Assembly (NCBI GenBank): GCA_016179765.1
Contig: JACPCL010000036.1
Span: 13,916 to 77,915, forward strand
Direction of reading: 5' to 3'
DNA: 64,000 nucleotides
Source of the DNA: Chloroflexota bacterium
Lineage (GTDB): Bacteria; Chloroflexota; Dehalococcoidia; Lucifugimonadales; JACPCL1
Position numbers and translations under genes: made by a program. Shown piece by piece: positions 4,451 to 52,005 of the stretch. The notes beneath the pieces are model-generated. The model worked only from the letters and a program-made list of their open reading frames with translations. It was not told the origin of the DNA and searched no databases. Position 1 is the first letter of the stretch. The number at the start of each line of letters is the position of its first letter.

Positions 4451-4489
4451 TGATGGGTGCTGCGGCTTTGCCGCAGCACCCATCATTAC
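4447..4489. terminator. bidirectional terminator hairpin between convergent genes
   Basis: Near-perfect ~20-bp stem (one mismatch next to the loop): GTAATGATGGGTGCTGCGGC-tt-TGCCGCAGCACCCATCATTAC. It includes the tilS stop codon. Confidence 0.7.
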
Positions 4490-4499
4490 AGAATCCAGG

Positions 4500-5426
4500 T
4501 CATCCCCCCAGCAGGTTGGTCACCAACAGGTCCTGATGCTCCAACAGGGGGACTGAGAGGGAGAAGGGCGTCCCATCGGCTCCTGTCCCCTCCACCGTCG
4601 CCTCCACGCGCAGGGAGAAGGTGGTGCGCTCTGCGGCGTTCACGTGGGACGGCCACCACTCCAGCAGGCGGCTGTTGTCCATGACGGCCCGGAAGGGCAC
4701 CGTTACATCTTTTCCCGGCGGCAGGGGAATGGCCTCGGTGGAGTCGGTCTGGGCCATCACCACGGTGTTCATGCGCGCCAGGACGCCGGTGCGGGCCACG
4801 GTGATGGTGGTGGCGCCGGTGTTGCGAACCACCAGGGAGCCGAGCACCTCGGTGGTGTCCTCCTTGACCTGCCCCCACTGAAGCCGGCGGGACTTGATGA
4901 GCAGGCTGAAGGGCCCCTGGGAGAGCACCTGGGGATCGGTAGAGTTGGCCTTGCCCAACAGGTCCGTTTCCACGGTGCGGGAGAGGTCCGGCGGGCTGAA
5001 GGAGAAGTTGCGGACCAGGTGCAGGATCCCCCGCGCCTGGATGCGCACCGTGGTGAACTCCTGGTTTTCCAGGTGGGAGGCCCACCACCGGGGCAAAAGG
5101 TTATTGTCCATGTGCGTCTCTACCCTGCTGGTGGATGCGCCGCTGGGGATGTGCACCTCCGCCAGGGAGCCTCGGCCCATGAGCACATCGTTCAGGTAGA
5201 TGTCCGCCTGAAAGCTGATACGGCTGGTGTTGATGTCAAAAACGTTGGGGTTCTCCATCTGTACCAGGGTCACCACCTGGGTAGACTCCCTGTTCACCTG
5301 GCCCCAGCTATGCTTGGCCGCTACCAGCTTTGGAGGTTTAGCGACGCCGAAGGCCACCGCCAGGACCGCCAGGAACACCATGACCAGGAAGAGGGCGAGC
5401 AGGGCCAGAAGCAACTTGCCAATCAA
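4500..5426 (-). CDS. membrane-anchored protein with two LEA_2/WHy-like domains
   Basis: N-terminal TM helix (LLLALLALFLVMVFLAVLAVAF). Two segments fit the LEA_2 pattern (ENPNVFDINTSRISFQADIYLNDVLMGRGS...IPSGAS and VVRNTGATTITV...IPLPPGKDVTVPF). Confidence 0.5.
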   Translation of the reverse strand: MIGKLLLALLALFLVMVFLAVLAVAFGVAKPPKLVAAKHSWGQVNRESTQVVTLVQMENPNVFDINTSRISFQADIYLNDVLMGRGSLAEVHIPSGASTSRVETHMDNNLLPRWWASHLENQEFTTVRIQARGILHLVRNFSFSPPDLSRTVETDLLGKANSTDPQVLSQGPFSLLIKSRRLQWGQVKEDTTEVLGSLVVRNTGATTITVARTGVLARMNTVVMAQTDSTEAIPLPPGKDVTVPFRAVMDNSRLLEWWPSHVNAAERTTFSLRVEATVEGTGADGTPFSLSVPLLEHQDLLVTNLLGG

Positions 5427-5588
5427 GGTTATCCTTCTCTCTTCTCTCTGCTAGGGCGCTGCCTTTTGGAGCGCTGTTCCATGCTGATGAGCGGGCAGCG
5501 CCTATTATGGCACATTCACTCTTGCGAGCGTTGCGCTATCCATGGCATTTCCAGAGCACTATGTGACGCAGAAAACGCATCAAGCATC

Positions 5589-5617
5589 TTGACACCTCCG
5601 CAAATGCCAGCTAGAAT
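5589..5617 (+). promoter_or_regulatory. consensus-like sigma70 promoter TTGACA-17-TAGAAT
   Basis: TTGACA at 5589-5594, 17-nt spacer, TAGAAT at 5612-5617. Three CGCAAAA repeats follow at 18-nt spacing (5621, 5639, 5657). Confidence 0.6.
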
Positions 5618-5644
5618 ATGCGCAAAACACGCATGGAGCGCAAA

Positions 5645-5899
5645 ATGAGCAATAGACGCAAAATGGCCCCAAGTCCAACCGCTGCCAAATCCTGGCTCCT
5701 CAAAGAGGCGACAGCTAGGGCTAAGGCCGTTGTGAGGAACCCGAAGGTGTGGCAATCACTGGTGAGGGTGCTAGCCGCCGTATTAGTGCTGTTGGCACGA
5801 ATGCCGAGTGGCCCTATAACAGCCCTAGCCTCATTGCTGGTGGCGGTAGCCAGTGTTTGGGCTTCTCCCCAAAAGCAACCTGTCGGAGAGGGGGTCTAG
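5645..5899 (+). CDS. small hydrophobic hypothetical protein
   Basis: Track ORF is 5618..5899. ATG 5618 directly abuts the -10 box, so ATG 5645 (GGAG 5 nt upstream) is preferred. Hydrophobic stretch LVRVLAAVLVLLA...LASLLVAVASVWA. Confidence 0.4.
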   Translation: MSNRRKMAPSPTAAKSWLLKEATARAKAVVRNPKVWQSLVRVLAAVLVLLARMPSGPITALASLLVAVASVWASPQKQPVGEGV

Positions 5900-5900
5900 A

Positions 5901-6353
5901 ATGCGCATAGGCAAGACAGACTTTGACATCGGCAACATGGGCCGCGTCCACCAGGCGGTCATGGACGCCGTGCCTGAAGAAGATGCAGTTGACGAAGCCG
6001 AACTGCGGGCGGTCTACGATGGGGTGGAAGAGCCGAACAAGCCCGCCTTTGAGACGGTGCTAGGTCACATCTCCTACTTGCTGGCGAAGCGCCAAATAGG
6101 GGGCGTCACCTTCTACCGGCGCAAGACCTGGCTCTCCAGTGCTGACGTCGCTCGCATGATGGACGTGTCCATACGTACGGCCCAAGACTGGGGCAAGAAA
6201 GGCCAGCAGGGTGCACAGCGGGTGGGAGGCAGGCTTCGCTTCGCCGCCGAGTCGGTGATGCGCAGGGATAAGCGCCCCCCTCACCCTCAGACCCCTGGCC
6301 CAGCGGCCCAGGTGTGGGACAACGACAAGGACAAGCAGTATGACAGCCTATAA
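5901..6353 (+). CDS. helix-turn-helix DNA-binding protein, probable antitoxin partner of MazF
   Basis: ATG 5901 preceded by GGAGAGGGGG. Excisionase/MerR-like HTH segment SSADVARMMDVSIRTAQDWGKKG...RLRF. 14-nt overlap with the MazF gene. Confidence 0.55.
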   Translation: MRIGKTDFDIGNMGRVHQAVMDAVPEEDAVDEAELRAVYDGVEEPNKPAFETVLGHISYLLAKRQIGGVTFYRRKTWLSSADVARMMDVSIRTAQDWGKKGQQGAQRVGGRLRFAAESVMRRDKRPPHPQTPGPAAQVWDNDKDKQYDSL

Positions 6354-6678
6354 GCGTGGAGACGTTGTCCTGCTGCGCTACACCTCCCCAGACGGGGCGG
6401 AGAACGGCCTGCGCCCCGCAGTGGTAGTTAGCTCAGAGACGTACCACCTGGGTAGGGGGCAGGTGGTCCTGGCTGCCGCCACCAGCAACCTGCGTGCTCC
6501 CCAGCCTGGAGATACCGCCGTGCAACACTGGGAGATGGCGGGCCTCAAAGGTCCCACCCTGGTCACCGGCGTCCTGCTGACGGCGCCTGCGGAAGGTGTG
6601 GCCAAGCGTTTGGGGACCTTGTCTCCGGAAGACCTGCGCGGCGTAGAGGCCAGCCTGCGGTTGAGCTTGGGGATGTAG
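6340..6678 (+). CDS. PemK/MazF-family toxin
   Basis: KRGDVVLLRYTSPDG...RPAVVVSSETYH...VVLAAATSN matches the MazF/PemK N-terminal signature. Confidence 0.75.
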   Translation: MTAYKRGDVVLLRYTSPDGAENGLRPAVVVSSETYHLGRGQVVLAAATSNLRAPQPGDTAVQHWEMAGLKGPTLVTGVLLTAPAEGVAKRLGTLSPEDLRGVEASLRLSLGM

Positions 6679-6707
6679 CCAGTCGTTCACCGAACCAAGG
6701 AGGAGCC

Positions 6708-6842
6708 ATGTTACCGAAAGAAGAACTTTCCAGGGTGCTGGAATTACCCATTAAGATGTTTCAATGGGCTTGTGAAGACCCTGAAAACGTGGCGGAGCTT
6801 TCGCGGTTTGCGAAGGAGCTTGTAAAAGCCCTTCAAGGCTGA
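6708..6842 (+). CDS. 44-aa hypothetical ORF (below ORF-track cutoff)
   Basis: ATG 6708 preceded by AAGGAGGAG. Translation: MLPKEELSRVLELPIKMFQWACEDPENVAELSRFAKELVKALQG. Confidence 0.3.
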   Translation: MLPKEELSRVLELPIKMFQWACEDPENVAELSRFAKELVKALQG

Positions 6843-7055
6843 AACTGGCAGGGGAACGATTCAATCACCTCCCTTAACGTTTAACGTTGACTTGGACAGC
6901 GTTCCAGCCCGCTTGAAGGCCACCTGGCAGCACCGCATTTCCCTCCCCGGGGCTGTCTAACCCACTACCATCCGCTAGCCTCTCCTTCCCTGCTCCTGTA
7001 TAATCGCACCAGCATCGCAGCGACCCTATGAGCTGCCTTCGCTAAAGGAGGGAAC

Positions 7056-8000
7056 ATGGCCGATCGTTTTCAAGGAAAGGTGGCCGTCGTCTCCGGCGGC
7101 GGCAGGGGCATCGGCCGCGCCGTCGCCCTGCTCCTGGCGGAGGAGGGGGCCTCCGTAGTGGTCAATGACCTGGGGTGCGAGGTGGATGGCACCGGCTCCT
7201 CCCACGTCCCCGCCGATGAGACCGTTGCCGCTATAACTAAGCAGGGCGGCAAGGCCGTCGCCAGCTACCAGGACGTCTCCCAGATGTCCGGCGGCGAGGC
7301 CCTTGTCCAGAAGGCGGTGGATACCTATGGACACCTGGACACCCTGGTCAACAGCGTGGGCATCCGCCGCGACCGCCTGATCTGGCAGATGACGCCGGAA
7401 GACTGGGACGCCGTGATCCGAAACTCCCTCAAGTCGGTGTTCACGACGACCAAGTTCGCCTGCATCCTCTTCCGTCAGCAGCGCAGCGGACGCATCGTCA
7501 ACATCACCTCCGACGCCGGCCTGGGGGGCATCGGCATGTCTAACTTCGCCGCCGCCTCCGAGGGTATCGTGGGCATGACGCGCACCATCGCACGGGACAT
7601 GGGCCGCTACGGCGTCACGTGCAACGCCGTCTCACCCATGGCGGCCACGCGCCTCTTTCCGGGCGTCGTGGACATGTACCGCCAGGGCGGCCCCAGGCAC
7701 AACAACCCAGACCGCCGGGCTGGCCTGGGCATCCCTGCCCCTCAGGATGCTGGGGAGGCATGGAAAGGCCCCGGCACCCCCAACGACCCGGAGAACGTGG
7801 CCCCCCTGGTGGCCTACCTGTGCTCCGGTGAATCGCCCAACGCCAACGGCTACGTCTTTGGCGTCCGCGGCGGCGATGTTTACCTGTACACCAACCCGGA
7901 GGTGGAGCGCGCCGTCTACGACCAGGGCCTCTTTAGCCTGGACGCCCTGGACGACCTGGTCCCGCGCATCATCTCCTATGACATGTGGCGCTGGAGATGA
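7056..8000 (+). CDS. SDR-family oxidoreductase (long form)
   Basis: GKVAVVSGGGRGIGRAVALLLAEEGASVVVNDLG Rossmann motif, NSVG, and SNFAAASEG (YxxxK region variant). Confidence 0.9.
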   Translation: MADRFQGKVAVVSGGGRGIGRAVALLLAEEGASVVVNDLGCEVDGTGSSHVPADETVAAITKQGGKAVASYQDVSQMSGGEALVQKAVDTYGHLDTLVNSVGIRRDRLIWQMTPEDWDAVIRNSLKSVFTTTKFACILFRQQRSGRIVNITSDAGLGGIGMSNFAAASEGIVGMTRTIARDMGRYGVTCNAVSPMAATRLFPGVVDMYRQGGPRHNNPDRRAGLGIPAPQDAGEAWKGPGTPNDPENVAPLVAYLCSGESPNANGYVFGVRGGDVYLYTNPEVERAVYDQGLFSLDALDDLVPRIISYDMWRWR

Positions 8001-8019
8001 TAGAGAATGAAACCAAAAC

Positions 8020-8138
8020 CTTTAGCAGGGTGCTGAAAAGGAGTGTCCAGAGTCCCGACAGGTCGGGACTCTGGCGGGGGTCTGGGGGTGTCCCCCAGAT
8101 ACAAATCAATCCGCCGTAGGCGGATACCTTGAACCCCC
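8020..8138. repeat. Rep-B modular repeat
   Basis: Sequence: CTTTAGCAGGGTGCTGAAAAGGAGTGTCCAGAGTCCCGACAGGTCGGGACTCTGG..GGGGGTCTGGGGGTGTCCCCCAGATACAAA..TCCGCCGTAGGCGGATACCTTGAACCCCC. Confidence 0.85.
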
Positions 8139-8983
8139 ACGACCTGGGGGGCCGCGTGGATGGCACTGGCGCCTCCACGGGCCCTGCCGATACCCTGGTG
8201 GCCGAGATACGCGCCGCCGGCGGCAAGGCCGTTCCCAACTACGACTCCGTCGCTACGATGGAAGGCGCCCAGAACATGGTGAAGGCCGCCCTGGACCACT
8301 TTGGCAACGTGGATATCCTGTGCCATGTGGCGGGTATCTTGCGGGACCGCATGGTGTTCAACATGGCGGAGGAGGAGTGGGACGCGGTGCTGCGGGTGCA
8401 CCTGTACGGCGCCTTCCACATGGTGCGTAACGTCGTGCCCCACATGATCAAGCAGCGATACGGACGCATCGTCATCTTCTCCTCGGGCTCCGGCCTGGGC
8501 AACTCCGGCCAGGCCAACTACGCCTCCGCCAAGGAGGGGCAGGTGGGCTTCTGCCGTGCCCTGGCCCGAGAGTTGGCCCCCTACGGCATCACCGTCAACG
8601 CCGTCTATCCCGGCGGCGACACGCGTATGACCCAGGGCATCCCAGACACCGCTCGCGAGATTCGCGCCCAGCGCGGCATCACCGCACGCCAGCAAGAGGT
8701 GCGGGAGGTGGAGAACCCCCGTGACCCAAACCGCAACGGCCCCAAGGTCGTCTACCTGTGTACCGAGGCCGCGGGCAACATCACCGGCCAGGTCGTCGGC
8801 ACCTCAGGGCTGCCCATGACTCTCTATTCGCCGCGCCACGTCTCCCGCGTCATCCACAAGGATGGACGCTGGACCCTGGACGAACTGGAGGTGCTGATGG
8901 GCAGCTCCATTACCCAGGGCATTCCCAACCCAGCGCCGGCGGCCCCGCCTCCTCAGCCCGCACCCACCGGCGCCCGGGCGTAA
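8129..8983 (+). CDS. SDR-family paralog lacking the N-terminal NAD(P)-binding Gly-rich motif (5'-truncated, possibly a pseudogene)
   Basis: Aligns to the upstream SDR from DLGGRVDGTGAS onward and keeps NYASAKEG and the PG motif. Its TTG start lies inside the Rep-B copy. Confidence 0.65.
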   Translation: MNPHDLGGRVDGTGASTGPADTLVAEIRAAGGKAVPNYDSVATMEGAQNMVKAALDHFGNVDILCHVAGILRDRMVFNMAEEEWDAVLRVHLYGAFHMVRNVVPHMIKQRYGRIVIFSSGSGLGNSGQANYASAKEGQVGFCRALARELAPYGITVNAVYPGGDTRMTQGIPDTAREIRAQRGITARQQEVREVENPRDPNRNGPKVVYLCTEAAGNITGQVVGTSGLPMTLYSPRHVSRVIHKDGRWTLDELEVLMGSSITQGIPNPAPAAPPPQPAPTGARA

Positions 8984-20730: not shown

Positions 20731-20773
20731 CTCCTCCCCCTTCCTTCCTAGGGAAGGGGGTAGGGGGTTAGGT
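20731..20773. repeat. Rep-A palindromic repeat
   Basis: CTCCTCCCCCTTCCTTCCTAGGGAAGGGGGTAGGGGGTTAGGT. Confidence 0.75.
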
Positions 20774-30000: not shown

Positions 30001-31110
30001 CTACAGCGCCACTTTCTGCCGCCTCCCGGTCTCCGAGGAGTGCTGGACGGCGTCCAGCAGCTTGTGGCGGCGCACGGCGTGGTCAAAGTCCGGCTCCATC
30101 TTGGTGTTGGTGCGGATCGCCTTGGCAAAGTTGACCCACATCTGGCCTACTTCAAAGGCGGAACCGGCCCTCTGCACCTCCTGGGGAACCCACTTCAGGC
30201 GGTCTGGGACGGGGATCTCCTGGAGCTGCCTATCGTCCTTGCGTCCGCCCATGATGCGTAGCTGCTCCCCCGCCGCCCCCCCGCCGCCGCCCCCGGCCAG
30301 GACCAGCGTGCCATCCTTGCCGTAGATCTCCATCCTGTACCCGCTGCCATGGTAGGGATGGACGCCCACGTTGGCGTTGACCACCGCGCCGCCCTCCAGC
30401 CTGCCGCTGATCATGATGTTGTCCGGCGAGGTCACGTCCACGTACCGGTTGGTGTCCGTCTCGTACCACTGCGGAACCTGGGTACTCACCACGCCTGACA
30501 CCTCCGTGATCTCCCCCACGACCATGCATAGCGCGTCAATGGAGTGGCCGAAGCCGATGGTCAGGGTGTTGGCGCCCAGGGAGGCGTCCCGCTGCCAGGT
30601 GCGGTCGGAGGTGCGGTTCAGGACGCCGCCGCCCTGCTGCATCAGGTTGACGGAGAGGACCTGGCCGACGTACCCCTCGGCCACCAGCTCCTTGAGGCGC
30701 AGGTACGTGGGAGAGGCGCGCCGTTGCAGGCCCACCATGGTGTGTACCTTCTTCCTGCGGGCCAGGGCCGCCAGCTCCTTGGTCTCCCTGAGGTTGGCAC
30801 CCAGGGGCCACTCGCAGTAGACGTGCTTGCCCGCCTCCAGTGCGTTCTTGGTCAGGACGTAGTGGGTGGGCACGCGCACCACCACGTCCACCGCCTCAAC
30901 CTGAGGGTTGGCGTCCATGGTCTTGTCGTTGTGGTAGGCCAGCTCCACGCTGTACTTCTGGGCTGCTTCCCGCGCCGTGTTGTCGTGGGCGGTGCAGACG
31001 GCGTACAGCTCCGTCTCCGGCAGCCTCTGTATGGCCGGGATGTGCGCCGACGGCCCCCACCGTCCGGTGGCCCCGATGAGTCCTACCCGCAGGCGATTGG
31101 ATGTGGTCAT
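30001..31110 (-). CDS. Gfo/Idh/MocA-family oxidoreductase
   Basis: N-terminal Rossmann LRVGLIGATGRWG and the CEWPL motif. Confidence 0.85.
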   Translation of the reverse strand: MTTSNRLRVGLIGATGRWGPSAHIPAIQRLPETELYAVCTAHDNTAREAAQKYSVELAYHNDKTMDANPQVEAVDVVVRVPTHYVLTKNALEAGKHVYCEWPLGANLRETKELAALARRKKVHTMVGLQRRASPTYLRLKELVAEGYVGQVLSVNLMQQGGGVLNRTSDRTWQRDASLGANTLTIGFGHSIDALCMVVGEITEVSGVVSTQVPQWYETDTNRYVDVTSPDNIMISGRLEGGAVVNANVGVHPYHGSGYRMEIYGKDGTLVLAGGGGGGAAGEQLRIMGGRKDDRQLQEIPVPDRLKWVPQEVQRAGSAFEVGQMWVNFAKAIRTNTKMEPDFDHAVRRHKLLDAVQHSSETGRRQKVAL

Positions 31111-31182
31111 AGATGTGCCTCCCTCACGAACTTGTAGAAGATGTAGTCCCCCAGACGCTCAGGATGTTCTAGCTTCCGATAG

Positions 31183-31608
31183 CTAAGTTTTCAGCGCTCC
31201 TTTCAGGTACCTAATCAGGTCATCGGGAGTCAGGACGCTGTCAACGATTACCTGTACGGCAGGGTCGCTGACTCGCTCAGATGTCACGACCTTCTTCCCC
31301 TTGCCATGAGCATATCCAGCCTCTATTGCCGTACTCAGGCCCATATAACCGTCCCTTGTTACGATATATAAGATCGCAGAGTGGTCAATCTTGCGGAGAA
31401 ACAGCCTCACCAGGTCCGCTTGCAGGCCGGGAGTTATGGACTCCCAGACCTCGTTGAACTCATAGTCTGGTGCATAGCAGGTCACACCGTGTCCTTCCAG
31501 ATAAGCCTGCACCTGGGCTGCCTCAGCAATAAACTTGAAGCTGGCCGCAAGGGCAACGTCACGATATTCGTTAATCTCATCCAAGCTTCTGGGCCAGGGA
31601 AATGTCAT
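31183..31608 (-). CDS. hypothetical protein, nucleoside 2-deoxyribosyltransferase-like fold suspected
   Basis: ATG 31608 (GGAGGAG upstream) inside track ORF 31183..31680. AILYIVTRDGYMGLSTAIEAGYAHGKGKKVV fits the NDT-like pattern. Lower-GC islet. Confidence 0.35.
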   Translation of the reverse strand: MTFPWPRSLDEINEYRDVALAASFKFIAEAAQVQAYLEGHGVTCYAPDYEFNEVWESITPGLQADLVRLFLRKIDHSAILYIVTRDGYMGLSTAIEAGYAHGKGKKVVTSERVSDPAVQVIVDSVLTPDDLIRYLKGALKT

Positions 31609-31698
31609 GATGACAGAACTCCTCCTGACCGGAGTCTTACTCCTCCTCCAGCGTGCTCGTATCGCCCTCCGGCAGGCCAAGATCGCGGGCCTTCAGAC

Positions 31699-31769
31699 CT
31701 CTCCGTGCGGAAAGGGAGAGCGATTCTCCCCCTTCCCGCACGGGAAGGGGGAGCCAGAGGGGATTAGGT
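31699..31769. repeat. Rep-A palindromic repeat (two hairpins plus GGGGATTAGGT tail)
   Basis: CTCTCCGTGCGGAAAGGGAGAG..CTCCCCCTTCCCGCACGGGAAGGGGGAGCCAGAGGGGATTAGGT. Confidence 0.8.
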
Positions 31770-31925
31770 CGTCTCCCTTGCCTTGCCTAGAATCTGCATC
31801 AATACCGCCGGCAGGTCTGTTTGCACCGCTTTATTCTGCTGCTGCCGCGTCCATTAGCTCACCGTTAGCTATATTACGCTCGCAAACATCCCTCTCACCC
31901 ATCACGTCGCGTGGCCCGACCGCCT

Positions 31926-32436
31926 TCATCTCACGTCCTCTTTCACGGGGAAACCCAGCCGCCGCCGAGGGGGGTCTGGCGGGGTCATAAGCTGCCGGAT
32001 AGCGTCAAACACTACTTTGAACTGCTGGTCATATTTCTTCTCTAGCTCGTCTAGCCTCTTTGATAGCTCTGCATTGGAGGCAACCAACTGGCGCAGTCGC
32101 ACAAAGGCCCGCATGATCTCAATGTTTACCTGCACCGCCCAAGCGCTCCGCAGGACACTGGAAAGCATGGCCACGCCTTGCTCGGTGAAGGGTAGGCGGA
32201 TAGCGCTTCCCGCCCCTCCCTTCGTTTGAGGTCACAATTTGTGACCTCAAACGGCTGAACTCTTCCTTGGTAAGTCGGAACATGAAGTCTTCGGGGAATC
32301 GGCCCTTGTTCCGCCCCACGGCTTGAACCAGCGCTCTCGTTTCCACGCCATAGAGTTCTGCCAAGTCGCTATCCAGCATAACTCGCTGGCTACGTATAGA
32401 GATGATTGCGCGTTCAATGCGTTCAGACGGGATCAT
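31926..32436 (-). pseudogene. ORF6N-domain protein, frameshifted
   Basis: Track ORFs 32119..32436 and 31926..32174 together give the ORF6N pattern ([46 protein letters not shown] then [29 protein letters not shown]). A 1-nt frame change lies near 32180-32195. Confidence 0.7.
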
Positions 32437-32542: not shown

Positions 32543-32582
32543 TTTCTCCCCTTCCCTTTAAGGAAGGGGCAGGGGATTGGGT
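32543..32582. repeat. Rep-A palindromic repeat
   Basis: TTTCTCCCCTTCCCTTTAAGGAAGGGGCAGGGGATTGGGT, same orientation as 31699-31769. Abuts the acsA stop codon. Confidence 0.75.
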
Positions 32583-34182
32583 TACTCCTCCTCCAGGGTG
32601 CTGGTGTCGCCCTCTGGCAGGCCAAGCTCCCGCGCCTTGAGCAGGCGGCGCATAATCTTGCCGCTGCGCGTCTTGGGCAGCGTCTTCACGAAGTCTATCT
32701 CGCGCGGGGCCACCATCGCCGACAGCTTCTGCCGGGAGAAGCGCAGCAGCTCCTGGCGGAGCTGGTCCGTCGGCTCGTAGCCGTCCTTCAGCGCCACGAA
32801 TGCCTTCACGACCTCCATGGCGATAGGGTCCGGCTTGCCAATGACCCCCGCCTCGGCGACGGCGGGGTGCTCAATCAGGGCGCTTTCCACCTCAAAGGGG
32901 CCGACCAAGTGGCCGGCGGTGTTGATGACGTCGTCGGCGCGGCCCACGAACCAGAAGAAGCCGTCCTCGTCCACGCGGGCCTCGTCGCCGGTGATGTACC
33001 ACCCCTTCTTGAACTTGGAGTTGTACATATCGGCGTTATTCCAGTGGCGATGAGGATGGCCCCTGTCTCGGTCTGCCACCAGTTGTCATGGATGGGCTGC
33101 TTGAAGGCCTCCAGCCCCCAGACGATGGCCTCGGGGTTCAGCGGCTCCCCCACGCTGTTGATGTAGCGCAGGCTGGAGAGGTCGTACTGGGAGGTCACCC
33201 GGGTGCCGCCGCGCATCAGCATACGGATGGCCGTGGGCGCGGTGTACCACACCGTGACCTTGTGCTTCTGAATCAGCTCGTACCAGGTGGTAGCCCTGAT
33301 CCCCCCCTCGTAGATAAGCTGGGTAACGCCGTTGCTCCAGGGGGCCAGCATCCCATAGGAGGTGCCGGTGACCCAGCCGGGGTCCGCGGTGCACCAGTAG
33401 ATGTCGTTGGGGTGCAGGTCCAGCACCCACTTGCCCGTCACGTACTGCTGGACGATAGCCATGTGGCGGTGCACCGCGCCCTTGGGCTTGCCCGTGGTGC
33501 CCGAGGTGTAGTGCATGATGGAGTAGTCGTACATGGAGGTGTTGTCCACCTTAAAGTCGGGCGAGGCTCTTGCCATCAACTCTTCATAGCGCAGATCGGT
33601 GGCAGCGATGGGCGTCTTGTCCCGCCCCAGCTTGTTCACGATGACGATGTGCTTCAGCTCCGGCAGGTCCTTGAAGATATGTGCGATGCGACCCCGCAGC
33701 TCCGGCGAGGTCACCAGGACCTTGGCCCCGCTGTCCAGCAGGCGGTCGCGCACCGGGTCGGGGCCGAAGGCGGAGAAGAGCGGCCCGGCGATGGCCCCCG
33801 CCTTCAGGATACCAAAGACGGCGAAGTAGTGCTCCGGGATGCGGTCCAGGAAGGTGAAGACCCGGTCGCCCCGCTGGACGCCCAGGCCCCGCAGCACGTC
33901 GGCGAACCTATTCGTCTCCCGTTTCATATCGGCGAAGGTGTACTGCTCCTGCTCGCCGTTCTTGCCCTCCCAGACCATGGCCCGCTTGCCGGCAAGGGGG
34001 CCGTTGGCGTGGCGGTCAATACACTCGTGGGCCTTGTTCAGGCCGCCGTCGGGTAGCCAGTCTAGCTCGCTGTACACGTCGGTGAACCGGAAGGAGTTGC
34101 GGAGCTTCTGGTAACCCGTGAGGTTTGGCTGCGCCTTCATCCGAGAAGGCGGCGGCTTCTTGGTAGTCTGGTAGGTAGCCAT
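32582..34182 (-). pseudogene. acsA: AcsA-type acetyl-CoA synthetase (AMP-forming) with internal deletion and frameshift
   Basis: Track ORFs 32875..34305 and 32582..33079. The N-part runs colinear to ..[16 protein letters not shown]. The C-part resumes at [30 protein letters not shown] in another frame. ATG 34182 after AGGAGAGG. Confidence 0.8.
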
Positions 34183-34389
34183 CAGACCTCTCCTGGCGTT
34201 GGGTTGCGCGGTAGGCACAAGTCTAGTACGCCTACCTGGGGGAGTCAACGGGCGCGGAAGAGCAACAACTCGGACAAGGCATCGTCCATCCTTTGCTGAT
34301 GGCAACCCGTTGTAGTAGTATTGCTGGCAGCGTCACTCTGTGTTGCGACTTTGCGCGACATTCAACAAAGAGGGTCAGAGATAACAAAA

Positions 34390-35430
34390 ATGAACGCTCC
34401 TGGATTACCTCGTTTTATCTTCCTTGGTGCGAAGCGCCCGGAATTACGTCTAATGGACGACGCAGGCGAGCAACTTCCTTACAGTTTGACCAACATCAAC
34501 GTGTACACTACCTCTGGTGACTTAACAGGAGAGCCTGGTACCCTTAGCTTGGCCAATCTGCTTCGGGGTACAGGGGGAATCATAGGATGGGGGCTAATAG
34601 ACCACTACCGATTGCCAAACTGCTACCTTTGCCTTTCAGGTCGTAGAGTGTGTCCGATGCTTGTCGATAAGGTGGAGGAAACAGCGTATGGCCCAGATAT
34701 TACTAAGGAAGTTGCAGTGCGAAAATTGAGGCTGAAGATGCATGAAAGGCCTCAATTAGAGAAATGTAATACTCTTAAGGTTTTGCTCGAACTTTCCCAA
34801 ACAGGACCCGAGAAACAACTCTTTTCCATGTATTGCGAAGCAGTAATCTCAGGGATAGACCTTAGACAGGTATCAGCCTACGATTTTGAATTTACTGTCC
34901 TTCAAGAGAGTTCCCTTGTGCACCAATACGGCAGCTTGTGGGAAGCGAAACTGCTGAACCTTCCTGCAAGTAGTCGTTCACCATCTGCCCTTACCGCCGC
35001 CATGCTGAATTCACTCGGCCAGCCGGCACTCTTGCCTCAATATTGGCTTGATTGGACCTATGATCCCAAGGCTCCCTCTCATTCCTTGCCCAGACCAACG
35101 CTAGATATGCCAACTAGGATTGACTTTTTTGCTTTTCGGAATGGGAAGCGCATGGCAATTGAAGTAGATGGCCCTGAGCATTATGCCAATTTTGATAGGC
35201 AGAATGGCAAATACGTTCTTAGTGAAGAGGTATATGCCAAAAACCTTAGAATAGATAGATCTATGCGTTTTCAGGGTTGGAAAATACATAGAGTGAGCAA
35301 TTGGGAGGTAAATGCCCAGCCTAACCGGGCATTGGCTGACCTAGCGGATGCCCTGGAATTACCCCTTGAAGGCTGGGGGGTTGAACCATTGCTTCCTGGC
35401 TTGCCAGACATAAGAGACTTGCCGTTTTGA
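34390..35430 (+). CDS. hypothetical protein with C-terminal DUF559/Vsr-like PD-(D/E)xK nuclease domain
   Basis: C-terminus RIDFFAFRNGKRMAIEVDGPEHY...RIDRSMRFQGWKIHRVSNWEV. The N-terminal ~250 aa were not recognised. Clearly lower-GC islet. ATG 34390 preferred to 34321. Confidence 0.55.
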   Translation: MNAPGLPRFIFLGAKRPELRLMDDAGEQLPYSLTNINVYTTSGDLTGEPGTLSLANLLRGTGGIIGWGLIDHYRLPNCYLCLSGRRVCPMLVDKVEETAYGPDITKEVAVRKLRLKMHERPQLEKCNTLKVLLELSQTGPEKQLFSMYCEAVISGIDLRQVSAYDFEFTVLQESSLVHQYGSLWEAKLLNLPASSRSPSALTAAMLNSLGQPALLPQYWLDWTYDPKAPSHSLPRPTLDMPTRIDFFAFRNGKRMAIEVDGPEHYANFDRQNGKYVLSEEVYAKNLRIDRSMRFQGWKIHRVSNWEVNAQPNRALADLADALELPLEGWGVEPLLPGLPDIRDLPF

Positions 35431-35461: not shown

Positions 35462-35736
35462 TTAGTGGGTCAAGGAATTTCTCAATTCGGCATCCTCTCG
35501 CTTGGCCTCGGCGCGCCGTTCTGCAATGAGCTTATCAGCCAGGCTTACTCCCCGTGAGACATTCTTATATCGCTCCTGTATCTTCGCCCACAATTGGTCC
35601 CGTGTGAGCAACTCTATGTGGCCCTCCTCCAGCAGGAGCAGCAGTTCATCCCCTTCCTTAAGGCCAAGCTCATGCCGCACCGCCGCCGGCAGGACTATGC
35701 CCCCTGGGAGCCTATTTTAACCGATACGTGTGCCAT
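35462..35736 (-). pseudogene. AbrB/MazE/SpoVT-type antitoxin, frameshifted in a G5 run
   Basis: ATG 35736 (GGAGGA upstream) gives MAHVSVKIGSQGA-stop. The next frame continues GIVLPAAVRHELGLKEGDELLLLLEEGHIELL. The shift lies at the C5/G5 run 35700-35704. Confidence 0.55.
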
Positions 35737-35800
35737 AGAAGCGTCCTCCGTGTGCCAACTGCCTCCAGTATGGCACGTATGTCAGAGTTACGCCATATTT

Positions 35801-36994
35801 CTACCCCACCACCCACCCGTACCCTATCCCTAGCGCGCCTCCTCCCGCCACCAGCCACGCCGAGTTGAGGCGCGTGCGGAACACAAGTACCGTCGCTACC
35901 AAGGCCAGCACGATAGTGAAGGGGTCTATGATGGAGGCGCGGCCAAGCTGCAAGGCCACGCCCCCCATGAGGGCCAGGGACGCCACATTCACGCCGTCCA
36001 GGGCAGCGGCGGCCAGAGGCGAACGCCGCACCAGGGGCAGGATGCGGCTCAGGAGCGCAACGAAGACAAAGGCCGGCAGAAAGATGCCCACCGTCGCCAG
36101 GAGAGCCGCCGGCAGCCCGCCCACCACGTACCCCACAAAGGTAGCGGTGGTCAGCACCGGCCCCGGGGTGAACTGGCCGATGGCTATGGCGTCCAGAAGC
36201 TGCTGGTCCGTCAGCCAGCCCAAGCGGTCCACGAAGTCGCCGCGCAGGAAGGCCAGCAATACGTACCCGCTGCCATACAGCACGGAGCCGATCTTGAGGA
36301 AGTTCAGGAAGAGCGTCAGCAGGCTATACGGGGCCGCACCGGCGGGCAGCGTTCCCAGGGAGAGGCTGCCTAGCGGAAGCAGCGCAAGGCCCGCCACGCC
36401 CTTCTTGGCCAGACGTTTGCCACCGTAGACCAGCGCCATGACGATGCCGCCTGCGAAGACCAGTAGCACCTCGTTGACGCCCAGTAGGTAGAGGACCAGC
36501 GCCGCAACGCCGGCGGCTGCCAGCACAGGGCCTTTCACGGCGCGCCGTCCCAAGGCCCACAACGCCTGCACTACAACGGCGATAATGACGGGTTTGATGC
36601 CGTACAGGAGCCACTCGGCCTGGGGCGTGCCCCCGTAGCGTACGTAGGCCATGGCCACGGCCAGGACAATGAGCACGGCGGGGGTGATGAACAGCGCGCC
36701 CCCAAGGATGAGGCCCGGCCATCCGGCGCGACGCTTACCCAGGTGAATGGCCATCTCCGTGGAGTTGGGGCCGGGGATAAGGTTGGTGGCCCCGACCATA
36801 TCCAAGAAGTCCTGGTCATCCAGCCATTTGCGGCGGCGCACCACCTCGTCCCGCATCATGGCGATGTGGGCTGCCGGGCCCCCAAAGCCAATGACGCCTA
36901 GCTTCAGGAACAGCCAGGCAACCTCTCTCAAACGCCCCGGGGTTCCTGTGGCGATTGTGGGCCTCCTGAGGTATGTGCCGTAGGGGCGCAGCAC
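35801..36994 (-). CDS. chrA: chromate transporter ChrA
   Basis: Two CHR halves (FLKLGVIGFGGPAAHIAMM.., FLKIGSVLYGSGYVLLAFL..). The annotated GTG start lies inside a Rep-C palindrome, so the start is uncertain. Confidence 0.85.
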   Translation of the reverse strand: MLRPYGTYLRRPTIATGTPGRLREVAWLFLKLGVIGFGGPAAHIAMMRDEVVRRRKWLDDQDFLDMVGATNLIPGPNSTEMAIHLGKRRAGWPGLILGGALFITPAVLIVLAVAMAYVRYGGTPQAEWLLYGIKPVIIAVVVQALWALGRRAVKGPVLAAAGVAALVLYLLGVNEVLLVFAGGIVMALVYGGKRLAKKGVAGLALLPLGSLSLGTLPAGAAPYSLLTLFLNFLKIGSVLYGSGYVLLAFLRGDFVDRLGWLTDQQLLDAIAIGQFTPGPVLTTATFVGYVVGGLPAALLATVGIFLPAFVFVALLSRILPLVRRSPLAAAALDGVNVASLALMGGVALQLGRASIIDPFTIVLALVATVLVFRTRLNSAWLVAGGGALGIGYGWVVG

Positions 36995-37010
36995 GCTGCG
37001 CCCCTACGGC
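36977..37010. repeat. Rep-C palindrome
   Basis: GCCGTAGGGGCGCAGC-ac-GCTGCGCCCCTACGGC, directly downstream of the peroxiredoxin stop. Confidence 0.75.
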
Positions 37011-37014
37011 ATTA

Positions 37015-37482
37015 TTATTTCCCGGCCAGCTTCTTGATAGCCTCCAAGGACTCCGTGGCGTGCTGCTCGGTGTTAGGCCGGTCATCCACAACGTGGCGGA
37101 TGATTCCCGACTTGTCAATGACAAAGGTGACACGGCGGTCGGAAAGGCGCTCCTCATTGAAGACGCCAAAGGCCTTGGCCGCGGCGAAGGTGGGGAAGTC
37201 GGCCACCACGGGGAAGGTCACGCCGCAGTGGTCAGCGAAGGCCTTCTGGGGAGGGGCGGCATCGGTGCTGGAACCCAGAACCTGGGTTTCTAGCTGCTGA
37301 AACTCCGAGAGCAAGCTCTGGAACTTTCGCAGCTCCCGCTCTCAGCCCCCTGTGAAAGCTCTGGCATAAAAGGCGACGACCACGTTCTGCTTGCCCTTGA
37401 AATCCGTGAGCTTGTACTCCTTGCGGTCAGCGCCGGTGAAGCTGACGTCGGGCACTGGGTCTCCGACCTGTAGCGGTGGCAT
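37015..37482 (-). CDS. Bcp/AhpC-TSA-type peroxiredoxin with in-frame TGA (candidate selenocysteine) at the peroxidatic position
   Basis: ATG 37482 after GGGAGG. One 155-codon frame: [49 protein letters not shown](37344..37342)-ERELRKFQSLLSEFQQLETQVLGSSTD...VTFVIDKSGIIRHVV...KLAGK. A hairpin starts at the UGA. Confidence 0.7.
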
Positions 37483-37532
37483 AGGAACCTCCCTTTGTTA
37501 AGAGCTGCGGGGACACGAAAATGGTGTGGCCT

Positions 37533-37561
37533 ATTATCGCAACGAACCTTGAGCAAGGCAA
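37533..37561 (-). promoter_or_regulatory. candidate peroxiredoxin promoter TTGCCT-17-GATAAT
   Basis: On the minus strand, TTGCCT (37561..37556), 17-nt spacer, GATAAT (37538..37533). Confidence 0.5.
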
Positions 37562-37565
37562 CAGG

Positions 37566-37600
37566 TGTGTAGGGGCGAGGCGGCGATGCGCCCCTACACA
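37566..37600. repeat. Rep-C palindrome
   Basis: TGTGTAGGGGCG...CGCCCCTACACA, 12-bp stem. Confidence 0.7.
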
Positions 37601-37606
37601 TTTCGC

Positions 37607-38910
37607 CTAGGGGAAGTCTGCGTCTGTGCTCGGTCTGGGGGTCGGCCTTGGCAGGGCGGCGCGCACCGCTTCGGCCAGGGTGCGGACGCCCGTGGCCTCA
37701 ATCGACACGCTGCCCGCATCGTCTCGCTGCGACGCTGGGATGACGGCGCGCTGGAAACCCAGGCGTGCGGCCTCGGAGAGGCGGCGGCCAAGCTGGGGGA
37801 CGCCGCGGACCTCGCCGCCCAGGCCAACCTCGCCAATGGCGACGGTCCAGGGGTCAATGGGGGCGTTGCGGAAGCTGGAGGCTAATGCCAGGGCCATGCC
37901 CAGATGAGGAGGAGGCGTCCGAAATCCACGCCCGTGCCCGTGCGCCGGGGCTGCGGGAAGACGGTGTGGGTGGTCAGGGCCTGCACCTCGGCCAGCAGGG
38001 GGCGCGTCCCCTCCATGGACACGACGACCACGGAGCCAGCGACGCCCTGCCGGTCATGGGAGAGGAAGAGGAGGGATGGCTCGGGCACCTCTTCCAGGCC
38101 TGCGCCGCCCATCTGAAAGACGCCGACCTCGTTGGTGGAGCCGAAGCGGTTCTTGACGCCGCGCAGGATGCGGTAAGGGGTGAGGGTATCGCCTTCCAGG
38201 GAGAGCACCACGTCCACCATGTGCTCCAGCGTGCGTGGGCCGGCGATGGTCCCGTCCTTGGTGACGTGGCCCGCCAGCAGGATGGGGACGCCGGTAGCCT
38301 TTGCCCACGCCGTCAGGCGGCGGGTGCACTCGCGCACCTGGGCAATGCTGCCCATGGCCGAGGGGGTGTCCTGGGAGTAGATGGTCTGGACGGAATCCAC
38401 GACGGCGAGGCTAGGCTTGAGCCGGTCCAGGTGAGCCAGAAGGACCTCCACTTCCGTCTCGCTGAGGAAAAAGATACCCTGGCCGGGGACGCCCAGGCGC
38501 TTGGCGCGCAGCTTGACCTGGTGGGCGGACTCCTCGCCGGAGGCGTAGAGGACGCGCAGGCCGGCGGCGGCCAGACGGGCGGAGGCCTGAAGAAGGAGGG
38601 TGGACTTGCCGATGCCGGGGTCGCCGGCCATGAGGACCATGGCGCCCGGGACGATGCCGCCGCCCAGGACGCGGTCCAGCTCGGCGAAGGCGGTGGGAAT
38701 GCGGGGCGAGGCGTCGGTGGAGATGGCGGAGAGCTCCTGGACGGCTGCGCCATCGCCATCTAACCACGGGGCCTTGCCTGCGGGACGGCTGGGCGCTTGG
38801 GCGGCGGCCATGGTGTTCCACTGGCCGCAGGCGGGGCACTGGCCGGTCCACTTGGGAGCTTGGGCGCCGCACTCCTGGCAGGCGTAGATGGTCTTGGTAC
38901 GCTTGTTCAC
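37607..38910 (-). pseudogene. radA: DNA repair protein RadA with internal deletion and frameshift in the Lon-like domain
   Basis: Zn ribbon CQECGAQAPKWTGQCPACGQW, Walker A GDPGIGKSTLLLQ, KNRFGSTNEVGVFQM. ORF 1 ends ..GVDFGRLLLI-WAWPWH-stop. ORF 2 (37607..37897) resumes LGMALALASSFRNAPI..FGEVGLGGEVR in another frame. Confidence 0.8.
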
Positions 38911-38923
38911 CTCACCCCCCGGC

Positions 38924-38948
38924 CCCCTCCCCTGAAGTGGGAGGGGGA
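38924..38948. repeat. Rep-A-like mini hairpin
   Basis: CCCCCTCCCCTGAAGTGGGAGGGGG. Confidence 0.5.
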
Positions 38949-39221
38949 GCTAAGGATTTTCTGCTACGGCGGGGCCATTGTAGCGCATTTGGGCGCTGTG
39001 TTTGATTGTTTGCCCGCCGACTGATTGTATTTCCCCCGCTTTTTCTGTGGCAGCTTTGGACGGGGGGAAGGCCAAATTGGAAGGCTCTGTTTGACCTTCT
39101 TGACCTTCCCCTGAGTCTCTCCTTCGGCTGGAACGGGACAGGCGGGAGGGCAGTGGCTATACTACGGGCTATCACACAAAGATGGTAGGAGTTGGGGGCG
39201 GGATAGGGCAAGAGGGATGTG

Positions 39222-39263
39222 ACCTAACCCCTGTCCCCTTCCCTCATAGGGAAGGGGCAAGAG
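39222..39263. repeat. Rep-A palindromic repeat (inverted orientation)
   Basis: ACCTAACCCCTGTCCCCTTCCCTCATAGGGAAGGGGCAAGAG. Confidence 0.75.
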
Positions 39264-39382
39264 GCCGGAGCAGGCGATGCAGGACAGGAAAGAGCAGGCG
39301 AGGGCAGAGGTGGGGCGAGAGCATCGCAGGCCTTCGCCGATGCCAGTCGTTCAGCGGCAGGCAACTAATGGCGGGCAAAGAG

Positions 39383-40288
39383 TCAGATGGTGTTAGACTG
39401 GCGGCGATTTGCTGGAGCCAGTTGTGGCCCTCTGTAGTTCTCCAGGAACGCCAGGGTATCTTCCTTGGTGGCAAACTTACCCGTGATTTCGTCTTCGTTG
39501 TTGTAGACGATTGAAATCTCGAGACGGACAAGGTGACCATGCACCATGAAATCATCGTAGCTCTTGATGAAAACGATAGCTTCATCCGCCGACTTCCAAG
39601 AAGAAGACACTCCGTGCAGGGGGAGCACTCTAATTGAAGCCACGTAGCGAGTAACGCTGCTTTCAAGGTTTATCATGAAAGCCCGGACTTCTTCATTGTG
39701 GGATTCAAGTAACGCGTTTGCCACCCGGCTACGTTGCCTCGCCGCCAGCCGTTCCCAAGCGGAAACCTTACGCTGGACCTCCGAATCTGGCGTGTCTTCA
39801 TCAAAAGAGGCGTCTATCCTGACTTCCTTGAATGCACTGAGCAGAGAGTCATAAGGGAAATAAAGAACCCGGAACTTTTGGGACTCAAGCTGTCTCAGAG
39901 CGCCTTCAGTGAATACTCCCGCAAGGATCGTACCCAGAAAGGGAGCTGAGCTTTGGTGGGTAGCAGCTAGAGGAAGAATTGCTCCCTGTATTTCCTGCGC
40001 TTTGTTCCGCGAATGCTTGGTGTAACGCCTCCATGCTGTTTCAATGAACGCAACTGGAATGCCTATTTCGGTGGCAGAGCCTCCCCTTTCTAGAACATAG
40101 TCAAGATCATGAATGTTCCCATATGAATCTGTCCAACTCACCTTCCGACCCTTACGTGCAGGTCGGGGTCCTTTCTTGTCCAAAAAGAGGGAGTGTTGCC
40201 GCGCAAAATCAGCCAGAATAGGTTCAATAGCTGTTTCCAACACATCCCCAATGATTTGGCCAAACCTGTGCGCGGGCGATTGCGCCAT
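39383..40288 (-). CDS. probable type II restriction endonuclease (partner of adjacent methyltransferase)
   Basis: 301-aa ORF starting 3 nt after the methyltransferase stop. Lower-GC islet. Possible PD-(D/E)xK-like core around HDLDYVLE...VAFIETAWRRYTKH. Family not recognised. Confidence 0.45.
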   Translation of the reverse strand: MAQSPAHRFGQIIGDVLETAIEPILADFARQHSLFLDKKGPRPARKGRKVSWTDSYGNIHDLDYVLERGGSATEIGIPVAFIETAWRRYTKHSRNKAQEIQGAILPLAATHQSSAPFLGTILAGVFTEGALRQLESQKFRVLYFPYDSLLSAFKEVRIDASFDEDTPDSEVQRKVSAWERLAARQRSRVANALLESHNEEVRAFMINLESSVTRYVASIRVLPLHGVSSSWKSADEAIVFIKSYDDFMVHGHLVRLEISIVYNNEDEITGKFATKEDTLAFLENYRGPQLAPANRRQSNTI

Positions 40289-40291
40289 GAC

Positions 40292-41572
40292 TTAACCCTC
40301 GACCCACAGGCAGCCTTCTTGCAACGGCACTCGGTGCTTGCGATTCTTCCACTTGGTGTTCCTGTCCCTGAGTTTCTCAAAACGGTAAGCCTTAAAGCCC
40401 ACACAAACAGCTAGTTGCCCCATCCACTCTTCAACAGGTACGTGTACTCCGTAGGGGGCAGAGTCTCCCACAACAAAGCATACGGCCGCGTTTTTCCGGC
40501 AAACGCGCCTCAGCGCTTGCCAGACATGGAGCATATCAGCGAAATACGCGGCGATCAGAACATCATACTGCTTCTTGCCCCCGTGGTTGCTCCGTTCTTC
40601 GGCGAGCTGTCCGCAAACAGTTCGAATAGCGCCTTCGAACGGGATTCCATTGAGTTGCGTTAGCATGTCTTCAATTGCGGTTTTCTCAGTAGAGACATGT
40701 TGAGAACAGGACCGTACAAGCCCTTTCCTAGCTTTCTCGTGGAGGTCACCCCAGTCAAGAACTTCACCGAGAAAGGTCATCTCGAGCCTGGTGGCATCAG
40801 CGTAATCATAATTGTTCGCATACGGGGGAGAGGTAACAACCAATCCAACCGATTGGTCTTCAATACCTTCACAAGTTCTAGCGTCCGAGAGGCGGATTTG
40901 CGCACTCGGTTCAGCAACCTGGAGTTGTCGGATACGCATGTCCATGATCATTCTGTTTACCTGAGAGGCGAAGGCATCGTAAGGGCGAGCAACTATAGCT
41001 TTCTCTTGACTAGGTAAGACGTATTGCCAAGGCGCCGTGCCGACGTGAGAGCAGGAACGAAGAATACTCACCAAACAAAGCCAGGCCAATTCCGAAACAG
41101 CGCTATAATCCGCGAGCCGTTCCCACGCCGCCTTTAGAGAGTAAAGATCTCTGATAGCATGCTCTGAGTAACACTTCTCTATGAGACGTGGATACTTGGG
41201 TTCGTGTGCTGGCTCGCGTTTTGCGGCGGTAAGAACACGCTCCGCAAAGTCGGCAAACTCTTCTACCCTCTCGTACCAATTCAGCTTTGCCTTAGCTACC
41301 CGGAGAATGAAGGGTTGTGCCTCTAGCCCTAGGGACCGAACCCCTGCTTCTTCAGCAGCAAGAACTGCCGTTCCTACGCCTGAAAACGGGTCAAGGAATG
41401 TTCCACCATTCAATTCGCCACGATGATCGTGGACAACTGTTCTAACCCATTCAGCAGAGAACCCCGCAGGGAACCTAAACCAACCATGTACAGGTAGCGC
41501 CACATTTCGGATGAAAGTAGATGTCCCGTTCCTTGTGGTGGGATAACTGGCGGCTTGCGTCAAAGCAGGCAT
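40292..41572 (-). CDS. DNA amino-methyltransferase (N4-C or N6-A), SPPY type
   Basis: Motif I-like FLDPFSGVGTAVLAAEEAG (aa 59-77) precedes motif IV VVTSPPYANNYDY (aa 245-257). Followed by YFADMLHVWQALRRVCRKNAAVCFVVGDS. Confidence 0.8.
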   Translation of the reverse strand: MPALTQAASYPTTRNGTSTFIRNVALPVHGWFRFPAGFSAEWVRTVVHDHRGELNGGTFLDPFSGVGTAVLAAEEAGVRSLGLEAQPFILRVAKAKLNWYERVEEFADFAERVLTAAKREPAHEPKYPRLIEKCYSEHAIRDLYSLKAAWERLADYSAVSELAWLCLVSILRSCSHVGTAPWQYVLPSQEKAIVARPYDAFASQVNRMIMDMRIRQLQVAEPSAQIRLSDARTCEGIEDQSVGLVVTSPPYANNYDYADATRLEMTFLGEVLDWGDLHEKARKGLVRSCSQHVSTEKTAIEDMLTQLNGIPFEGAIRTVCGQLAEERSNHGGKKQYDVLIAAYFADMLHVWQALRRVCRKNAAVCFVVGDSAPYGVHVPVEEWMGQLAVCVGFKAYRFEKLRDRNTKWKNRKHRVPLQEGCLWVEG

Positions 41573-41705: not shown

Positions 41706-41813
41706 ATGGCGGCAGACCGGCGGATAAATAGGCGGGTGTACGAGGTGTACGGTCTTACTACTGCGGAACGGCGGCTGGTGGGGGGGACGCAGGTTGTCCG
41801 AAGGCCCCTGTAG
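41706..41813 (+). pseudogene. remnant resembling the C-terminal tail of type IIG/Eco57I-like R-M enzymes
   Basis: 35-codon ORF MAADRRINRRVYEVYGLTTAERRLVGG... recalls the ...IDRLVYELYGLTEEEIxIVEG tail. No upstream body is present. Confidence 0.3.
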
Positions 41814-41842
41814 GGGCGCAGCATGCTGCGCCCCTACAGGGG
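41805..41842. repeat. Rep-C palindrome (perfect)
   Basis: CCCCTGTAGGGGCGCAGCATGCTGCGCCCCTACAGGGG. Confidence 0.8.
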
Positions 41843-51886: not shown

Positions 51887-52005
51887 TCCTGGTGTTTAGA
51901 GCGAGGTGGCACCACCCGTTCCCATCCCGAACACGGAAGTGAAACGCCTCAGCGCTGACGATATTGTGCCCGCGAGGGTATGGGAAAATAGGCCATCGCC
52001 AGGAC
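51887..52005 (+). rRNA. rrf: 5S ribosomal RNA
   Basis: UCCUGGUG...CCCAUCCCGAACACGGAAGUGAAACGCCUCAGCGCUGA...CGCCAGGA matches the bacterial 5S consensus, and helix I closes between the two ends. Confidence 0.85.

Follow-up and report, generated by a model that had tools for sequence, protein, structure and literature searches.

The radA gene of the Chloroflexota genome analyzed here is written with a gap of 100 nucleotides in the coding sequence of its Lon-like (P) domain, and this gap is likely an artefact of assembly, scaffolding or sequence handling, radA being intact in the organism. The analysis covered a window of 64,000 nucleotides, in which the radA locus occupies positions 37607-38910 of the minus strand. 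It is directly observed that the window has the gap and that four same-strain assemblies, made independently, contain the missing bases; the best-supported reading is that the organism carries a complete 467-aa RadA/Sms gene of the usual kind.

As written in the window, radA is read normally over 336 codons, after which 100 nt are absent and the remainder, up to the usual end of the gene, is in a shifted frame. The correctly framed 5' part (codons 1-336; 37903..38910, minus strand), delimited by matches to TIGR00416 and Pfam and by identity to the same-strain contig L091, spans the zinc ribbon, the RecA-like/DnaB-type ATPase, the KNRFG motif and the beginning of the P domain. It forms most of an ORF of 342 aa (37882..38910, minus strand) which starts with MNKRTKTIYACQECG and whose translation reaches VDFGRLLLI, followed by WAWPWH and a stop. 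This out-of-frame tail and the premature TAG at 37882-37884, a stop that had already been pointed out in the earlier note, together occupy 37882..37902 (minus strand). The 3' part (37607..37902, minus strand), assigned from TIGR00416, Pfam ChlI and the same-strain contigs L092-L094, comprises residues 370-467 and the normal stop, one base out of the 5' frame, and encodes the remainder of the P domain. Its translation yields an ORF of 96 aa in this other frame (37607..37897, minus strand; LGMALALASSFRNAPIDPWTVAIGEVGLGGEVRGV...RLSEAARLGF), to which TIGR00416 positions 377-454 match, in agreement with the earlier proposal that the rest of the domain had moved to a second frame.

Upstream of the gap, the hallmarks of the RadA family are all present. 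The C4 zinc ribbon (residues 9-34; 38809..38886, minus strand) is matched by Pfam PF18073 (E = 1.7e-11), and its CxxC...CxxC pattern can be read in the translation. The Walker A sequence GDPGIGKST of the DnaB-type ATPase (residues 96-104; 38599..38625, minus strand) occupies invariant columns in an alignment of 10 RadA sequences, and the KNRFG motif (residues 253-257; 38140..38154, minus strand), which is RadA-specific (PMC5512693, PMC4786428), is invariant from K253 to G257 in the RadA alignment. The intactness of the zinc ribbon, ATPase and KNRFG motif, initially deduced from the letters, is thus upheld by profile matches and invariant columns. Among Pfam families, Zn_ribbon_LapB, AAA_25, ATPase (KaiC-type) and DnaB_C match the 5' piece; the 3' piece matches the last part of the ChlI/Lon-like domain (ChlI positions 65-120/121). 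The NCBIfam equivalog profile TIGR00416, for which the cut-off is 403 bits, aligns with the 5' piece over profile positions 3-343 (427.6 bits) and with the 3' piece over positions 377-454; positions 344-376 (~33) find no match in the window, which encodes no complete in-frame P domain. Nor was a second copy of radA found within the 64-kb window.

The locus is bordered by palindromes. A perfect 12-bp hairpin, located directly 3' of the radA stop by an inverted-repeat search (37566..37600, without strand assignment), represents a terminator or one of the GTAGGGGCG palindromes, and related palindromes lie at 36976-37011 and 41805-41842. Immediately 5' of the radA start, the hairpin list contains a G/C-rich palindrome (38923..38949, also without strand), and the Logan contigs L085 and L089 terminate there, at window position 38923. 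Short, perfect, G/C-rich palindromes of several families (e.g., TCTGGGGGTGTCCCCCAGA, ATCCGCCGYAGGCGGAT, GTAGGGGCGCAGC..GCTGCGCCCCTAC and CTCCCCCTTCCC..GGGAAGGGGGAG) occur in intergenic positions of the window and are REP-like. A first set is found at 8081, 15592, 15738, 28351, 52210 and 60875, a second at 8109, 22068 and 28379, a third at 36976, 37566 and 41805, and a fourth at 20736, 31726, 38923, 39235 and 48759; the ends of Logan contigs tend to coincide with such palindromes (8076, 36979 and 38923).

The size and position of the gap were established by alignment to the relatives L081, L001 and L082 and to the same-strain contigs L091-L094. The junction lies at 37902..37903 (minus strand), where 100 nt (ACCGCC...GCTGACC) are missing: the window reads CTCCTCATC joined directly to TGGGCATGG, while the intact version is recognized by ACCGCCGTCCTGAGC...GCCGCTGACC. 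The gap measures exactly 100 nt against all three relatives, including L081 (92% nucleotide identity), and against all four same-strain contigs, its position being ambiguous by 1 nt (a C). Since 100 nt correspond to 33 codons and 1 nt, the reading frame of radA is changed. At the protein level, a search of a large collection retrieved full-length RadA sequences (467-495 aa) encoded in metagenome genomes of Chloroflexota and Dehalococcoidia. The 33 residues missing from the window (TAVLSKRLGYALSDQDVIVNVAGGLRLEEPAAD or close variants) are present in each of the nine relatives aligned, and, in the alignment of these relatives with the two window pieces, most columns of the segment are invariant or nearly invariant. 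The "roughly 30 residues" first reported absent are therefore 33 residues plus 1 nt, and the description of a clean deletion within the Lon-like domain, accompanied by a frameshift, is structurally exact. It had also been considered that relatives might naturally lack this segment while remaining in frame; comparison with radA of sister genomes found the segment in all of them. As it is conserved P-domain coding sequence in all relatives, an excised intein or mobile element is ruled out. The junction shows a microhomology of only 1 nt (C), which occurs both in the left flank and at the end of the missing 100 nt, and no direct repeats were found flanking it, which rules out repeat-mediated collapse or slippage. 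With a GC content of 73% for the missing bases vs 71% for the radA gene mean, nothing suggests a coverage gap driven by GC either.

Same-strain contigs were retrieved by look-up of the 46-aa ORF located just downstream of radA. Four Logan contigs, each from a different run, span the junction (L091, SRR12113433; L092, SRR12113426; L093, SRR12113401; L094, SRR12113429). They match the window at 100% identity on either flank of 37903 and, at this position, contain an extra segment of 100 nt which is the same in all four and restores an uninterrupted RadA of 467 aa, the length of the closest NCBI relative, with a complete P domain. The contigs cross both edges of the segment, none of the four ending or branching there, and in each of them the long ORF leads into the 46-aa downstream gene. 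A longer, in-frame sequence in read data had been named at the outset as the sign of an assembly collapse, and it is exactly what these independent read-derived assemblies contain; the loss of RadA, or its conversion into a two-piece protein, suggested in the earlier note, finds no support, the contigs carrying the 100 nt and an intact 467-aa gene.

Beyond radA, the window agrees closely with these data. Exact copies of its neighbouring genes occur in Logan assemblies of the SRR121134xx runs, and no mismatch or indel relative to Logan contigs was detected over 3056-8076 and 36979-40500 (>8 kb), except the 100-nt gap. Such base-perfect stretches imply that the window is not generally error-prone and that it has instead a few discrete, clean lesions; a generally error-prone (long-read-like) assembly is accordingly ruled out. 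Counting against an assembly artefact, there is no N anywhere in the window, including at the radA junction, and the join is base-precise. Independent assemblies disagree with the window at the radA gap and agree perfectly around it, as is characteristic of a local assembly error, and the lesion, found in none of the four same-strain contigs, is not reproduced in independent data as that of a genuine pseudogene would be. Separately, a Logan contig from an unrelated accession series (L104, SRR4343428) is 99.9% identical to window positions 30760-31956, which indicates that the strain is present in at least one further dataset.

It is unlikely that the window records a real and very recent 100-bp deletion, that is, a radA null allele in the sampled sub-population coexisting with the intact allele in other samples. 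Such an event would be compatible with the precise junction in an otherwise highly accurate assembly and with the segregation of loss-of-function variants in natural populations; radA is also dispensable for viability in model bacteria (PMC4786428, PMC9129000), and the further lesions of the window could indicate a lineage accumulating deletions. However, the deletion is carried by none of the four independent same-strain assemblies, which show no branching at the site, and a public collection of 153 billion genes contains neither the 342-aa nor the 96-aa product in exact form. Both radA halves are nucleotide-identical to the intact allele and thus show no decay following inactivation; comparison of the remaining radA sequence with the same-strain contigs disclosed no signs of relaxed selection or decay, and the deletion would have to be too recent for any other difference to have built up. 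The single nucleotide of microhomology also falls short of what is usual for slippage deletions. Finally, several large, clean lesions of housekeeping genes within 64 kb, together with zero point differences, are better accounted for by assembly faults than by evolution. If the deletion were real, it would constitute a natural null allele segregating in an uncultured population, which would be of modest interest.

Hardly any probability attaches to a functional split RadA made of the two ORFs, or to frames joined by programmed frameshifting. Each piece is a long open frame whose motifs are intact, and an ATG at 37897 opens the 3' ORF; this ATG is nevertheless not preceded by a Shine-Dalgarno sequence, and the arrangement is found in no relative. 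A degenerate pattern of the deletion junction had 0 matches in JGI metagenomes, against 97 contigs for a control pattern of the intact left junction, a result that also favours the artefact over a genuine pseudogene. Moreover, the 33 invariant or near-invariant residues that are absent belong to the P domain which maintains the hexamer (PMC5512693), and deletion of the C-terminal domain abolishes the function of Escherichia coli RadA (PMC4786428). Frameshifting cannot restore a missing sequence: because the residues are absent rather than merely out of frame, neither a two-piece protein nor a programmed frameshift is credible.

Regarding the origin of the artefact, which remains the preferred explanation, the most likely cause would be a local assembly error in which two contigs were joined over a short unassembled gap whose bases were left out; alternatively, a gap filler may have been lost in later sequence handling. 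De Bruijn contigs normally require read support for every k-mer, and the error would consequently have to stem from scaffolding, gap closing or later handling. SRR12113421, whose accession adjoins those of the matching runs, is the run from which a genome of agricultural groundwater (Modesto, California) was binned, and belongs to BioProject PRJNA640378 (He et al., 2021). The closest GTDB relative (L001), a Chloroflexi genome designated NC_groundwater_..._Ag, also comes from the PRJNA640378 study. In this work, each filter was assembled by MEGAHIT and the contigs were then scaffolded by IDBA-UD (He et al., 2021; PMC7906910), and the window presumably derives from the same pipeline. Local assembly errors at joins have been suspected to be especially prominent with IDBA-UD and, when uncorrected, spread wrong gene sequences into databases (Chen et al., 2020; PMC7111523).

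A different origin, in which the bases were removed after assembly from a scaffold that was originally gapped, by stripping of an N placeholder or other record editing for instance, appears improbable. In public records, 100 is the conventional length of a gap of unknown size; the loss is exactly this round number, the window contains no N, and the scaffolding in the likely source study puts Ns at joins. Yet a conventional length would not normally match the true length of the missing sequence, the lesion in the acetate-CoA ligase gene described below measures 154 nt and is not round, and the data bear no sign of editing.

Other genes of the window exhibit comparable lesions. The acetate-CoA ligase (ACS) gene is split by a frameshift into ORFs at 32875..34305 and 32582..33079 (minus strand). 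Relative to L095, the deficit at ~33045 is exactly 154 nt, 2 nt short of 52 codons, and the missing segment encodes NYAFQEVRHGSMGRP...WPSMFHTY; compared with five relatives, 52 residues are lacking, and positions 372-420 of NCBIfam NF003313 are unmatched. An ORF6N-domain gene (31926-32436, minus strand) is split into ORFs of 105 aa and 82 aa by a net loss of 2 nt at ~32190, the relative L095 having an intact gene of 170 aa. A short-chain dehydrogenase (SDR) gene (8120-8980, plus strand), the second of two in tandem, lacks its first ~35 codons: the match begins at profile position 31, and both the start codon and the glycine-rich NAD-binding motif of the Rossmann fold are missing. The SDR sequence begins right after three perfect hairpins (8047-8125), and three Logan contigs all stop at 8076. 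By contrast with these few lesions, ~35 other genes of the window have full-length domain coverage, including those encoding ClpC, FtsZ, GlnA, IF-2, NusA, TruB and TilS.

The ORF6N fragment is absent from the gene collection, a protein search around the ACS junction yielded relatives at 80% identity or below but no same-strain match, and the Logan contigs with neighbouring genes stop before reaching the lesions. By analogy with radA, the ACS, ORF6N and SDR lesions are assumed to be artefacts as well. That a sub-population has just lost both RadA and acetate-CoA ligase, through clean deletions of 100-154 bp without microhomology, is more doubtful still than a recent deletion of radA by itself; if true, these losses would suggest that deletions arise by an unusual process or that a recombination-deficient lineage lives beside an intact one.

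The window contains several additional features. Next to radA, an AhpC/TSA peroxiredoxin gene (37015-37482, minus strand) has an in-frame TGA (37342-37344) where the peroxidatic cysteine is expected (AFYARAFTGG-TGA-ERELRKF), as a result of which gene callers split it into ORFs of 46 aa and 99 aa. L081, L092 and L095 share this TGA, which is also where a stable hairpin begins (-26.9 kcal/mol, z = -1.7); the gene probably encodes a selenocysteine peroxiredoxin. A lone 5S rRNA gene (51888-52004, plus strand; 87.6 bits) was identified, no match to 23S or 16S rRNA being present anywhere in the 64-kb window. Two islands, at 39383-41572 (minus strand) and 34321-35430 (plus strand), have a low GC3 (0.45-0.52 vs ~0.8 in neighbouring genes). 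The former, directly upstream of radA, contains an N6_N4_Mtase (DNA methyltransferase-like) gene and a 301-aa gene of unknown function. The latter contains a weak REase_MTES_1575-like gene between ACS and a chromate transporter, at a site where relatives have a MazE-PIN pair, and a MazE remnant is found at 35462-35755. Both islands probably consist of horizontally acquired genes of restriction-modification type.

The consequences of the radA gap are to be considered first for databases. Through a fault of 100 bases, a near-universal repair gene would be counted here as lost or as a pseudogene, and such faults would pass into any survey of gene loss, estimate of completeness or count of pseudogenes that relies on scaffolded metagenome-assembled genomes; at least one further core gene of the window, acetate-CoA ligase, bears a similar clean lesion. 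The radA gap resembles the errors reported by Chen et al. (2020; PMC7111523) in that a short stretch is missing at a join, the resulting coding sequence is wrong and the scaffold is otherwise accurate. In that study, a local assembly error is recognized when the consensus across the junction lacks a single perfectly supporting read (PMC7111523), whereas the radA case rests on disagreement with four independent assemblies.

With respect to RadA itself, alignment with the Streptococcus pneumoniae protein places the 33 missing residues in the C-terminal P (Lon-like) domain, which forms a six-fold ring, the RadA hexamer being kept mainly through P-P contacts (Marie et al., 2017; PMC5512693). In E. 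coli, deletion of the C-terminal (Lon-like/S5-domain-2) region negates RadA function in vivo, as stated by Cooper and Lovett (2016; PMC4786428). Given this role of the P domain and the effect of its deletion, the window allele, if real, would be null: its truncated product, without a foldable P domain, would form no hexameric ring. The E. coli C-terminal deletions cited there (PMC4786428) are, however, laboratory constructs, while there is no evidence that the window allele exists in cells. As written in the window, the gene departs from the RadA/Sms family by the absence of 33 P-domain residues and by its frameshift, but the gene of the same strain elsewhere is typical of the family. For biology, the gap is of minor consequence. 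The organism's RadA shares 91% identity with that of a groundwater Chloroflexota and is a conventional representative of an extensively studied family. Once restored to 467 aa, it aligns end to end with S. pneumoniae RadA (8RXC, 5LKM; E ~3e-129) and has the domain order common to RadA/Sms proteins: C4 zinc ribbon, DnaB-type ATPase with Walker A, KNRFG motif and P domain.
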